DNA from: a virus
Strand: one strand, 5' to 3'
IMG/VR virus record: IMGVR_UViG_3300045988_142085
Span: 32,001-96,000 of that record
DNA: 64,000 nucleotides
Shown here: in pieces, positions 2,540 to 53,766 of the stretch
Layout of the letters: the number at the start of each line of letters is the position of its first letter
Numbering within the stretch: the stretch's first letter is position 1
Position numbers and translations under genes: made by a program
The notes under the pieces: generated by a model
Told to the model about the DNA's origin: nothing
Seen by the model: the letters and a program-made list of their open reading frames with translations, nothing else
Databases searched by the model: none

Positions 2540-2758
2540 CTAATTATCCTTTCTTATAATACGAGAATGATATCCTTCTTTTTTATTCACAATCTTTAAT
2601 GCGATTTCATCGTAGCTGTCAGTCGCTATTAACTGATATACGAATACTGTATCGTGATTGCTGCTTGCGCGTTCAATTCGTCCATGACGCTGAGTCTGGA
2701 TCAAATAACTATCGGCTGGTTCCATCTCGATGAGGTACTTAGCCGATTGGCAATTCAT
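2540..2758 (-). CDS. SF2 (SNF2/DEAD-like) helicase, exon 2 (motif VI)
   Basis: NCQSAKYLIEMEPADSYLIQTQRHGRIER equals SNF2 LNLQxA...QAxGRxxRIGQ motif VI. It continues helicase motif V (NAGAEG), which ends exon 1. Confidence 0.65.
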   Translation of the reverse strand: MNCQSAKYLIEMEPADSYLIQTQRHGRIERASSNHDTVFVYQLIATDSYDEIALKIVNKKEGYHSRIIRKDN

Positions 2759-3064
2759 CATTCTTGTGTTAACTTACTATTTCTAGTAAGATCGGACTCT
2801 ATCTTTAATTTTTTATTTAAAAATTATTTCCTGTTCAATGTATACATTGTTTACTTATATCTTATTAAGATACTTTCAATAGTCTCTGAACCTTTATCTT
2901 TGTCACCAAAGATACTTGGCTGCGGATTGTCCAATCTTAATCTTTTTTACTGTATCAAGATAATTACTCTTGCCCCATATTATATCACTATATATGGTTA
3001 GTAGATTAAGCTCTAAGGAGATCCCCGTCAATTTAGGAAATTTAAAGAGGGCATGAGTTTGTTC
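2759..3064 (-). mobile_element. group I-like intron (family B, ORF-less) in helicase gene
   Basis: Interrupts the motif V/VI junction. Contains GACTCTATC ... GATAGTCTCTGAAC (P7-like halves) shared with the recA and gyrB introns. Exon 1 ends in T; candidate 3' splice site after G of the ATG before AAT TGC. Confidence 0.6.
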
Positions 3065-4321
3065 ACCCTCTGCGCCAGCGTTAGAAGCAATTAGGACATT
3101 ACATTCTTGTGTATTATTAAATTTTTGTAATTGATTATATCGTTCTTCACTTGAGTGAGAGCCATTAATAAAGGCGATTTGAATTCCTTTAAAACGATTT
3201 TCTAAATACGTTTTAAGAATTCCTTGTGCTGTTCTATACTTACAGAACACAACAACTTTTTCACCTTCACTTAAAATACTCTCGACTAAGTCTAAGAACA
3301 ATTCAATCTTTTCAGATTTTTCGCCAGTCACATATTCTTGTGCCGCTTTACTATCGCTTAGTAATAATAACTCATCACTAATAGTAAGCTCTTGAGCAAA
3401 TGTTTGTTTCATTAAGATCATATTATCGATCTTATTAAATTCTTCATTCTTTCTAGCTTCTTCGATCGAATTAAACCGTTCAAGCATAACTTCTTGTTGT
3501 GCTTTAAGATCTTTGATTTCTTCGAGGAGCTTATCACTCATAGCTTGTACTTTTCTACCTAAAGAGCAAAATTTTTGAGCGACGACAAGTTTAGGTAAAT
3601 GACTGCTTACTTCTTCTTTCGTTCGGATAATTAAATTATGTTTAATTTTATCGGTTAATTCTCGTTCATTACGAGAACCGATAATATATCCGAGACTATT
3701 CTTTTTGACATATTGTTTATCGAATTTATTTATATTAGTAAACAAATCTTTTTTGATAAATCTATATATGCCAAATATATCTCGAGGATTTTTTTGAATC
3801 GGAGTTGCTGTTGCTCCGAAAGTATACTTTATATTATTAAATTTATATAGGCTTTTACTTCGTTTGGCTTGATAGCTTTTTACATATTGTACTTCGTCGG
3901 CAAAAATATATTCTAATTTCATTGCCAACAAACGTTCTCGAACTTTTTCGTCGTTAAGCGTTTCATAGTTACAAATAAGTAAATCGCCAACAAACTGATT
4001 ATCGAAGTTTTTCTTAGCCTTTGCTGAAGTTTCTAAAATGCTCGGAATCAGATCACTAAACTTCTGAACTTCATGGAACCATTGAACTTTTAAACTACTT
4101 TTAACTACGATTAATCCTGGACCTTTTATTTTCTTACGGTCTAAAAGTTCTAGATAAAGATCGATCGCTATTAAAGTTTTGCCAGCCCCGCAGCTTGCGA
4201 CGATTAAGCTACCTTCATCAATATCGAGAAGTTCTTTTACGGCTGTCTTTTGATAATTATAGAGTTCATATTTACATTTACCGATACCTTCGATGCTAAA
4301 ATTCGGACAATATAATAGCAA
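3065..4321 (-). CDS. SF2 helicase, exon 1 (Walker A GAGKT, DEAD-like motifs)
   Basis: SCGAGKTLIAI, FADEVQ, NVLIASNAGAEG. The ORF-track tail EQTHALF...KYLW is intron read-through. The first canonical start is TTG at 4321; the frame stays open about 75 codons upstream. Confidence 0.7.
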
Positions 4322-4551
4322 TCGATGGATATCGTTAACTTTCCATTTACCTTGTTCGACGAAGTTGGATGTCTTTCCGAGCCCATAAAGAATTTTATTT
4401 AAATCTTCTTTATTTAAATTTTGAGGAACGACAACATTATTTAATTTGTCAATTATCAGATTATCACCACCTTTAATAATATATAATACTATTATACACT
4501 ATTTAGATCTTAATCTTCAATTGATTTATCGAAATTTCAATACCGGCAACA

Positions 4552-4806
4552 TTAAGCTTTATACCGTCTTCTTGATGTTTCCGGTATGTATACTTTTTCC
4601 AGGGCTTTTTCAAGCTTTTGTAATTTTTCCATGTTTTGTTTGATGCATTCATGATCTGTATGTACCTTCAACAATCTTTTAATGCCGCCAATATATGACA
4701 TAATGTCAAGAATTTGTTGCCGAGTTGTATAATACTGATTTTTCAACATAGTTTCTTCCTCAGCAATAAATTGACTTATTTCATAGTTGATATCTCTTGT
4801 TAACAT
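4552..4806 (-). CDS. hypothetical protein
   Basis: 84-aa minus-strand ORF. Confidence 0.4.
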   Translation of the reverse strand: MLTRDINYEISQFIAEEETMLKNQYYTTRQQILDIMSYIGGIKRLLKVHTDHECIKQNMEKLQKLEKALEKVYIPETSRRRYKA

Positions 4807-52991: not shown

Positions 52992-53221
52992 TTATATCTC
53001 TCTAATTTTAATTATACAAAGCCACTATTTTTATACTGCATTAAATTCTATAGCTCCAAAACCAAGAGAGCTTTGCAGATTTCTCATTACTTGTTTTAGC
53101 ACTATAATAATACAATTCTGCATCACAAATATTAATTGTTATGATTATTGCAGGATTTTAGTACGTTTTAATATTATAATAAACAATATAACTCTAAAAC
53201 TATTCGATATTCTGCTGTGTA

Positions 53222-53397
53222 GTCACCTTAATTTTAGTACTGTATCAAACTATACAGCTCTAAAACCTCAAATTTGCAAAATTAGAGCTATATTTAACAG
53301 TACTTTATAGAGTCTTCTAAGTTATCTTAGCAGACTTCTAAAGGGATAAAACTTAAGCCCTATACCGACTAATTAAAAATATGATCGGTTACAATTA
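53222..53397. repeat. about 175-bp repeat, copy A (IS605-like left end; hairpin TATACAGCTCTAAAAC-N11-AAAATTAGAGCTATAT)
   Basis: About 75% identical to 55768-55927 over the whole length. Also shares AATTGTAAC terminus and GGG(A/G)(T/C)AAAACTTAA(G/A)CCCTATAC motif. Confidence 0.6.
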
Positions 53398-53435
53398 AAA
53401 AAAAGAGCGACCATCTTAGCTACTGGTGATCGCTC
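53395..53435 (-). terminator. rho-independent terminator (GAGCGA-CCA...TGG-TGA-TCGCTC hairpin + T8)
   Basis: On the minus strand, directly after the putative 3' exon remnant of gene 53765-54130 and before the IS left end. Confidence 0.5.
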
Positions 53436-53467
53436 TTAATGTCCGGCAACATTTCGCTGACGGCTCT

Positions 53468-53766
53468 CCTAAGATTAACGCTATGTCTAGGCTATCTCAT
53501 GCCTTGCATCCTATATCTTAGGCCTAGTATATTATACTAGGATTAATTAATCCATATCTTTCGATAGGGCCGCCCACTACTTCTTCCATATGAAAGTTGC
53601 GGTCTTTTAGGATATTATATTCTCTAACGAGTTTCAATCCATTGGGCACTTGACTACATTATTACATATAGCCTTCAGTGAACGTTGGCATATCTTACGA
53701 CTTAGCTTTCGTTCCAATACCGCAATTATTCGCAAGACTAAGCTTGCTGCAATTTATTTAAAAGCT
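53468..53766 (-). mobile_element. group I-like intron (family A, ORF-less, about 299 nt) inserted inside the stop codon of gene 53765-54130
   Basis: 5' end AGCUUUUAAAUAAAUUGCAGC; core GAAAGCUAAG...AUAUGCCAAC...GAAGGCUA...UAGUCAAGUGCCCAAUGGAUUGAAAC; 3' end ...AGCGUUAAUCUUAG (omega G). All parallel the uvrD and clpX introns. Splicing would convert UAC U|AG into UAC U|GA. Confidence 0.55.

Follow-up and report, generated by a model that had tools for sequence, protein, structure and literature searches.

Ten predicted group I introns in conserved motifs of six core genes of an uncultured jumbo phage

Why are so many of the core genes in one stretch of a viral genome in pieces? The stretch is positions 32,001 to 96,000 of the IMG/VR record IMGVR_UViG_3300045988_142085, and we refer to all 64,000 nucleotides (nt) of it as the window. 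A sequence-only reading had proposed that at least 11 introns resembling group I introns split seven core genes. We find that six genes are split and that the seventh is intact. As judged from sequence comparisons, the window very probably contains ten group I introns in six minus-strand genes for DNA metabolism and chaperones, within a 40-kb stretch; an eleventh element is an intergenic core. The idea of many group I introns, with several per gene, holds up on covariance-model matches, on covariation, and on presence and absence among relatives. We are similarly confident that the ten are mobile introns and that the sites they colonised are the most conserved active-site motifs of these genes, which serve in replication and repair or as chaperones. 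The window is an unusually dense case, but of a known kind of genetic parasitism.

We set the junctions of each intron from intron-less alleles in relatives, namely about 30 contigs in IMG/VR, the longest of 236 kb (numbered with the prefix L below), with roughly 90% DNA identity to the window. All of the introns and their exons are on the minus strand. The SNF2 helicase, UvrD and AAA ATPase genes have one intron each. In SNF2, an intron of 306 nt (3064..2759) lies between exon 1 (3065-4321) and exon 2 (2540-2758); in UvrD, an intron of 344 nt (20692..20349) lies between exon 1 (20693-20788) and exon 2 (18513-20348); and in the AAA ATPase gene, an intron of 1512 nt (24061..22550) lies between exon 1 (24062-25123) and exon 2 (22010-22549). 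RecA has two introns, of 214 nt (30652..30439) and 376 nt (30133..29758), and its exons are at 30653-30922, 30134-30438, and 29160-29757. GyrB has three introns, of 244 nt (37747..37504), 309 nt (36624..36316), and 302 nt (36099..35798), and four exons, at 37748-38077, 36625-37503, 36100-36315, and 35417-35797. ClpX has two introns, which we call A (42350..42053, 298 nt) and B (41967..40729, 1239 nt), and its exons are at 42351-42776, 41968-42052, and 39917-40728. The AAA intron and ClpX intron B bear open reading frames (ORFs), and the other eight introns are 214-376 nt long, much as expected from the 214-345 nt that had been put forward for the segments without ORFs.

The genes are in the numbers of pieces that had been proposed for them: the fragments match successive parts of Pfam profiles, and the spliced ORFs are all open (SNF2, 491 amino acids; UvrD, 643; AAA, 533; RecA, 390; GyrB, 601; and ClpX, 440). 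The three pieces of RecA cover positions 2-64, 65-160, and 158-261 of the Pfam profile, and the pieces that flank the AAA intron cover positions 4-70 and 74-129 of the AAA profile. The main ORF of UvrD begins at profile position 26, and the first 32 residues of the protein, which end in GAGSG, are encoded upstream of the intron. The pieces of GyrB match the HATPase, DNA_gyraseB, Toprim, and C-terminal domains. When spliced GyrB is compared to solved GyrB structures (E=1e-109), the alignment runs through all three junctions, GGLNG^VGSS, VEG^DSAGG, and SDAD^DDGAH (here and below, ^ marks a junction). ClpX is in three pieces, and its 85-nt middle exon encodes KTFLIKQLAKYLGRPCVIVDASSLTKSG. Without splicing taken into account, these six core genes of an abundant uncultured lineage of jumbo phages would be miscalled as fragments.

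All ten insertion sites are within highly conserved motifs. Three are in Walker A motifs (GSG^KT in UvrD, DSG^KT for RecA intron 1, and GCG^KT for ClpX intron A). The three introns of GyrB are in the ATPase (GHKL) domain, in the Toprim motif, and in the DxD of Toprim, respectively. The SNF2 junction is in motif V and reads AGAEG^MNCQSAKY, where intron-less relatives read EG(L/V/A)N..SAKY. Of the remaining three sites, one is in the AAA ATPase gene, and the other two have the junctions VAS^QARM (RecA intron 2) and KSG^FVGED (ClpX intron B). Insertion in highly conserved motifs is typical of the targets of homing endonucleases. The introns had also been described as relatively GC-rich, which we did not see: the ribozyme parts are 34.6% GC and their exons are 34.1% GC (31.5% for the whole window).

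Are the intervening sequences group I introns? Six of them, those in SNF2, RecA and GyrB, are detected by the Rfam model for group I introns (RF00028, Intron_gpI), with E-values ranging from 6e-23 to 5e-3; we refer to these as family 1. GyrB intron 1 (94.2 bits), the SNF2 intron (66.2 bits) and RecA intron 1 (64.8 bits) are above the gathering threshold, and RecA intron 2 is near it (44.7 bits, E=4e-8). GyrB introns 2 and 3 have weak matches in a scan of 7 kb (24.3 and 24.4 bits, each with E=0.005), and both have canonical P4, P6, P7 and J8/7 motifs. The core motifs of GyrB intron 2 are AAUUGCGGG, AUCCGCAGC, GUUCAGAGACUA and AAGAUAUAGUCC. We rejected the ends of the Rfam matches as the ends of the introns: for five of the six, the true 3' end is 7-51 nt further on (14 nt for SNF2 and 51 nt for GyrB intron 1), and GyrB intron 2 ends 3 nt past its match.

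The cores of the family-1 introns are 66-76% identical to segments in the genomes of phages of Staphylococcus (some of them 133-141 kb long), Enterococcus, Bacillus, and Brochothrix. The matching segments mostly lack annotation, and the ones from Brochothrix phages are in or beside the ribonucleotide reductase gene. There are 593 phage records with a match to GyrB intron 1 and 86 with a match to the SNF2 intron. In the Rfam alignments, the family-1 introns have hairpin-forming insertions between the 5' strand of P7 and the 3' strand of P3. The six introns are of the type found in Twort and phage K.

The other four introns (UvrD, AAA, ClpX intron A, and ClpX intron B) are clearly related to each other, and we refer to them as family 2. 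The sequence-only reading had suggested the Rfam group I model as a check on its introns; in scans of small regions, the four family-2 introns had zero group I matches even at E<=10. A profile built from the four introns (using nhmmer) finds exactly five copies in the window, with E-values of 1e-37 to 6e-70. Four are the introns themselves (UvrD, 1e-61; AAA core, 1e-53; ClpX intron A, 6e-70; and ClpX intron B core, 5e-54), and the fifth is the intergenic core that is discussed below.

For family 2, we named a group I structure in advance and then tested it on an alignment of 29 copies with under 88% pairwise identity. Under this structure, 88.9% of the cells are paired, versus 30-42% if the partners are slid, and 54 of the 64 pairs show compensatory changes. 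All six pairs of P3, which forms a pseudoknot with P7, covary, and P7 is 100% paired. Between P7 and the 3' strand of P3 there is a P7.1 helix that is 97.9% paired, with covariation at 4 of its 5 pairs and an optional nested hairpin. P7 is GCAUA/UAUGC (or GCGUA/UACGC) in this family, but L112, one of its members, has the canonical GACUA/UAGUC at that place, and the family's consensus for J8/7 (AAAGAUAUGCU) mirrors the canonical AAGAUAUAGUC. Given the covarying core, P7.1, the P7 of L112, and J8/7, family 2 is therefore taken to be a genuine family of group I introns of IA type; that is, it resembles subgroup IA, which has the extra P7.1 helix. RF00028 probably misses family 2 because its P7 differs (GCAUA/UAUGC instead of GACUA/UAGUC).

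Family 2 extends well beyond this phage. Over 290 nt, the UvrD intron shares about 70% identity with part of the gyrA coding sequence (CDS) of AR9/PBS1, and it also matches the Yersinia phage phiR1-37. The gyrA CDS of AR9 is annotated as a join of three pieces, and the family-2 profile finds two copies within it. Furthermore, a scan for family-2 motifs identified at least 119 stretches in IMG/VR. Family 2 is a widespread family of phage introns, and yet the standard Rfam model does not see these 4 of the 10 introns in the window.

We found an empty allele for all ten sites, with a 0-nt difference in length from the spliced sequence of the window. Together with the E-values of the Rfam and nhmmer matches, these alleles show that the result is not due to chance. 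In a comparison across the whole window, each intervening sequence was missing from some of the relatives, with clean breakpoints. The SNF2 intron is absent in 9 of 14 relatives, the UvrD intron in 10 of 15, GyrB intron 1 in 7 of 15, GyrB intron 3 in 8 of 15, and ClpX intron A in 11 of 16; among the loci that cover the RecA sites, intron 1 is absent from 11 of 26 and intron 2 from 15 of 28. For GyrB intron 2, the empty alleles of L005 and L015 lack exactly the 309 nt ending in A. Intermediate forms are found as well. At the AAA site, 5 of 15 relatives are empty, 8 have an ORF-less intron of 299-307 nt, and 2 have an intron with an ORF. At the site of ClpX intron B, the 16 loci include 4 that are empty, 6 with an ORF-less intron of 280-284 nt, 2 with an ORF, and 4 that were misprojected.

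The presence of homing-endonuclease ORFs, as claimed earlier, was borne out. The P1 loop of the AAA intron contains an HNH endonuclease ORF (22802-23986, minus strand; PHROG HNH family, E=1e-20), and the P1 loop of ClpX intron B contains a LAGLIDADG endonuclease ORF (40961-41914, minus strand; Pfam LAGLIDADG_3, E=7e-11). Both of these long introns have the endonuclease gene after the 5' splice site and ahead of the guide sequence, and the ORF-less relatives lack exactly that segment. If the window and its relatives are considered together, ORF-containing versions are present at 7 of the 10 sites, and none were seen at the two RecA sites, with GyrB intron 1 as an ambiguous case. At the level of DNA, the introns would spread by means of homing endonucleases such as the HNH and LAGLIDADG proteins, and the population seems to have been caught across the homing cycle, with empty sites, introns with an endonuclease, and introns without one. 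The roughly 30 related genomes are a natural dataset for studying the homing cycle and intron-mediated competition between co-infecting phages.

The relatives also have insertions at sites that are occupied by nothing in the window (window positions 37783/37800, 19805/19821, 19009, 18766, and 22393), which are either introns or IStron insertions (an IStron is a group I intron fused to an IS200/605 element as one spliced unit). UvrD has three more of these sites, the AAA gene has a second, and GyrB has a fourth, which is occupied by a family-2 intron; across the population, the six genes have at least 15 insertion sites. In addition, synonymous changes that distinguish alleles with an intron from those without one are clustered in the exons, no more than about 15 nt from the junctions. 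Examples are at 20693-20705 and 20336-20348 in UvrD, where the contrast is GGT AAA ACT AGC versus GGC AAG ACG AGC. Such clusters are as expected from co-conversion tracts or from endonuclease-resistant variants.

How would the introns be removed? By analogy to the rest of the group I family, P1 would form in the folded pre-mRNA by pairing of an internal guide sequence with the last nucleotides of the 5' exon, and a U.G pair would mark the site of cleavage. This site would be attacked by an external guanosine. The terminal G of the intron would then occupy the same pocket, and the exons would be joined, which would restore the reading frame. The sequence-only reading had stated that a U precedes every intron and that every intron ends in G, wherever the junctions could be pinned. 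We found both features in 8 of the 10 introns. A U at position -1 is present in nine, the exception being RecA intron 2 (with C), and in the register that restores the ORF, nine have a terminal G, the exception being GyrB intron 2 (with A).

We found a guide sequence for all nine of the introns with U(-1). In the ORF-less introns, the guide, with G opposite U(-1), is located 8-24 nt into the intron. P1 has 7 base pairs (bp) in SNF2 and in GyrB intron 2 and 6 bp in GyrB intron 1; in the remaining introns, it has 4-5 bp. Examples are AGAGGGU/GCCCUCU (SNF2), AACGGU/GCCGUU (GyrB intron 1), GCGGU/GCCGU (ClpX intron A), and CGAGGGU/GCUCUCG. The SNF2 intron also has a P10, which pairs AUGA with UCAU.

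Of the two exceptions, RecA intron 2 shares its C(-1) with 14 relatives, in which the junction GCCUC^C...AAAAAG^CCAAGC is conserved. For GyrB intron 2, GGU^...UUAA^GAU is the only register that keeps VEG^DSAGG. We considered other registers for both introns and rejected them: combining U(-1) with a terminal G leads to a frameshift or to the deletion of conserved residues. In GyrB intron 2, the 17-nt tail after P7 contains no G at all. The 7-bp P1 of this intron, which ends in a U.G pair, directly adjoins P10 on the guide sequence. P10 spans 9 positions, of which 8 are paired in the window, and starts at the G of GAU, the Asp codon; opposite this G, the guide has C in the window and U in the relatives, either of which can pair with it. 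The ortholog of this intron in the more distant L014 ends in G (...AAAUUG^GAUUCUG). Downstream of the intron, GyrB exons 3 and 4 have a ratio of nonsynonymous to synonymous polymorphism (pN/pS) of 0.01-0.09, at pS of 0.19-0.38, among the genomes that carry the intron. Because of this low ratio, we take exons 3 and 4 to be translated in the GyrB frame.

We tentatively suggest, with rather less than even confidence, that in this lineage the excision of GyrB intron 2 uses a register at odds with the universal junction rule, and the simplest version of this is a 3'-terminal A. Alternatively, 5' cleavage might occur one nucleotide away from the U.G pair, which would give EGNSAGG; either option would be unusual. 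A literature search for natural introns without a terminal G turned up nothing useful. If the suggestion is correct, then GyrB intron 2 would be a naturally occurring group I intron whose exons are ligated with no terminal guanosine.

What, then, is the eleventh element? It is a core of the family-2 type (53549..53752, minus strand; family-2 profile, E=2.5e-37) in an intergenic region, and Rfam gave zero group I matches on it. The sequence-only reading had placed an intron in a stop codon here, which turned out to be mistaken. The element, of about 205 nt, begins about 14 nt past the stop codon of the gene at 53765-54130. Alleles that lack it (in L051, L039, L040, and L045) retain the same stop codon, TAC TAG/TAA CTTTTAAATAAA..., and the element follows that sequence. 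Its breakpoint in the DNA has no terminal G. In several relatives, there are just 15-20 nt or so from the stop codon to P3, without P1, P2, or a guide sequence. Nevertheless, pairing in the helices of this orphan core reaches 96.9% across 12 genomes, including relatives whose upstream protein is about 74% identical, and 9 pairs are compensatory. The orphan core is a structurally conserved RNA without a recognisable P1, and probably not a cis-splicing intron. We see two leads here for RNA biochemistry: the intron without a terminal G in GyrB, and this conserved P1-less group I-like core past a stop codon.

A gene for TnpB lies downstream of the orphan core (51780-52991, minus strand, within an element at about 51789-53397), and it was identified from Pfam's OrfB_IS605 and a Cas12f1-like TNB domain, so the core and the TnpB gene might together be an IStron. 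Relatives of the phage do have units in which a TnpB-like ORF comes after a group I intron, some of them inside the UvrD and AAA genes. In the window, however, we consider this very improbable and rejected it, as the core and the TnpB segment vary independently among the relatives: the core is absent and TnpB is present in L039, L040, L045, and L051, and both are absent in L046 and L047. Also, a conserved structured RNA and a terminator separate the core from TnpB, the core has no P1, and only 4 nt separate tnpB from the next ORF, too little space for a guide RNA 3' of the gene.

The structured RNA between the orphan core and the terminator is about 150 nt long (window 53400-53548, minus strand, z=-3.4). 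It is kept, with compensatory changes, in alleles that lack the orphan core, and Rfam has no family for it. The TnpB segment is missing from L046 and L047.

The insertions with TnpB-like ORFs in the relatives are about 1.8-2.6 kb long (such as L030 11306-13490, L003 1676-3463, and others in L026 and L035). Two of these insertions begin with a strong Rfam group I match (92-96 bits), which is followed by the TnpB-like ORF; others have just a TnpB-like ORF of 367-423 amino acids, and some are in UvrD or in AAA exon 2. The units with both components are, in part, what is expected of IStrons, and they are IStron-like elements in a phage. Within a 2.5-kb insertion that bears TnpB, L002 has a match to Rfam RAGATH-18 (19213-19299; 64 bits, above the gathering score), at the equivalent of window position 31310.

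Another explanation for the split genes is that the intervening sequences are decayed remnants that no longer splice, in which case the genes would be pseudogenes or would be expressed as fragments. Most of the introns do lack an endonuclease gene, two have non-canonical junction nucleotides, and splicing is predicted from sequence. Yet two of the exons are as short as 85 and 96 nt and would therefore be unable to work alone; strong purifying selection acts, in the GyrB frame, on the exons past GyrB intron 2; compensatory changes preserve the pairing of the ribozyme cores; and all of the exon frames are open across about 15-28 related loci per site. We consider this explanation very improbable.

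We see a close to negligible chance that inteins, group II introns, or artefacts of assembly or frameshifting account for any of the interruptions: a LAGLIDADG_3 domain like that in the ClpX insert does also occur in inteins, but the inserts have stop codons directly past the 5' junction and in every frame, a size of 214-376 nt is far too small for group II introns, and the same insertions, with exact breakpoints, are found in many independent assemblies. The ClpX insert in particular was rejected as an intein; its LAGLIDADG ORF is free-standing amid non-coding ribozyme sequence and is flanked by stop codons, and a Pfam search of the inserts found no Hint domains. Group II introns have a structure of six domains including domain V, are usually at least 600 nt long, and often contain a reverse transcriptase ORF. 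Rfam gave zero matches to group II families at E<=10, and domains V and VI were not found.

Several points weigh against the interpretation that all ten sequences are mobile, splicing group I introns. Splicing at every site is deduced from sequence, and the guanosine-binding pocket is beyond what sequence by itself can verify. Two of the GyrB introns score just 24 bits with Rfam, and the subgroup of family 2 is placed at the level of IA, without a choice among IA1, IA2, and IA3. Finally, RecA intron 2 has a non-canonical C(-1) and GyrB intron 2 has a non-canonical terminal A. We still consider mobile group I introns to be the very probable explanation.

How do these introns compare to those of known phages? 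Members of the Herelleviridae (phages related to Twort and phage K, Enterococcus phages, Brochothrix phage A9, and the Bastillevirinae) share the family-1-like cores, and their introns, like those of the window, are found in genes of DNA metabolism, carry HNH or LAGLIDADG genes in peripheral loops, and may occur several to a gene. Three introns in Twort orf142 are cited in PMC11878797. The host genes for family 1 in the window are SNF2, RecA, and GyrB, whereas those in Herelleviridae are for ribonucleotide reductase, polymerase, terminase, and lysin. The window also has a much higher local density of introns and two non-canonical junctions. For family 2, the closest homologues are the gyrA introns of AR9/PBS1. 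AR9 and our phage are both jumbo phages, but they are of different lineages, megablast of 25 kb of the window showed no DNA similarity beyond the introns, and the hosts of family 2 in the window are UvrD, AAA, and ClpX.

The td, nrdB, and sunY introns of phage T4 (subgroup IA2) are inferred to share the same mechanism, have extra helices between P7 and the 3' strand of P3, and like the introns of the window they are in genes of nucleotide or DNA metabolism and have an endonuclease gene in a loop. In contrast, the P7 of family 2 is GCAUA/UAUGC instead of GACUA/UAGUC. T4 has 3 introns in 169 kb. As for IStrons, relatives carry group I and TnpB units of about 1.8-2.2 kb, some of them in coding genes, and the window has TnpB near a core; in the window, however, the core and TnpB are separate polymorphisms and the core lacks P1.

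The density of introns had been described as well beyond that of intron-rich phages such as Twort or SPO1-like viruses. Heavy loads have already been published, though: the crAss-like Zeta and Jug phages have a massive load of group I introns in core genes, with several per gene and with presence or absence varying at the level of strains (PMC7886860, PMC12880540), and Jug phages have an average of 18.5 group I introns per genome of 360-402 kb, with support from metatranscriptomes (PMC12880540). What does stand is that, at 1 intron per 4-6 kb in the window alone, the local density exceeds the genome-wide averages of Zeta and Jug phages (about 1 per 11-20 kb). Like our phage, Zeta and Jug phages are uncultured and human-associated, with infested core genes. 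They infect Bacteroidota, their genomes are unrelated to that of our phage, and the window, unlike them, has neither an alternative genetic code nor inteins.

The window is part of a phage genome of about 236 kb from human microbiome data, and one of its proteins is also encoded on a 236,270-nt metagenome contig (ENA ERZ27263288 k119_70580). The phage is a jumbo phage that is known from metagenomes only; megablast of the first 25 kb of the window against cultured phages gave no match. Essentially all of the genes in the window are on the minus strand, and as identified with Pfam and PHROG, they include primase, RNA ligase/kinase, SNF2, UvrD, AAA ATPase, RecA, topoisomerase II subunits, thymidylate synthase, SSB, and ClpP/ClpX. 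A search for the host with 114 spacers from Streptococcus arrays of clustered regularly interspaced short palindromic repeats (CRISPR) gave zero matches to the phage.

The region around the TnpB gene contains clustered inverted repeats, GTTTTAGAGCTGTAT / ATACAG.ACTAAAAT, at window positions 53048-53266 and 55780-55821. The 5' arm of the GTTTTAGAGCTGTAT-type repeat is identical at 19 of 20 positions to the first nucleotides of the type II-A CRISPR repeat of oral Streptococcus, and a scan of genomes with the motif yielded matches almost exclusively in Streptococcus. At up to 3 mismatches, there are 6 matches to the motif in the window, versus 3.3 expected. These repeats could be a mimic of the CRISPR repeat, subterminal hairpins of an insertion sequence (IS) element, or a product of chance.

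The same region has a non-coding direct repeat of about 140 nt (53232-53365 and 55762-55904). By blastn, L037 and L039 appeared to have lost 2.4 kb between the two copies, but on closer mapping both of them keep 55628-53752, so this apparent loss may be an artefact of aligning the repeats. Lastly, just downstream of the gene that ends at 56026, in a genome of 31% GC, there is a very GC-rich hairpin, GGGGGCAAGCCCCCGCACCCCCGG (window 55990-56015, minus strand).

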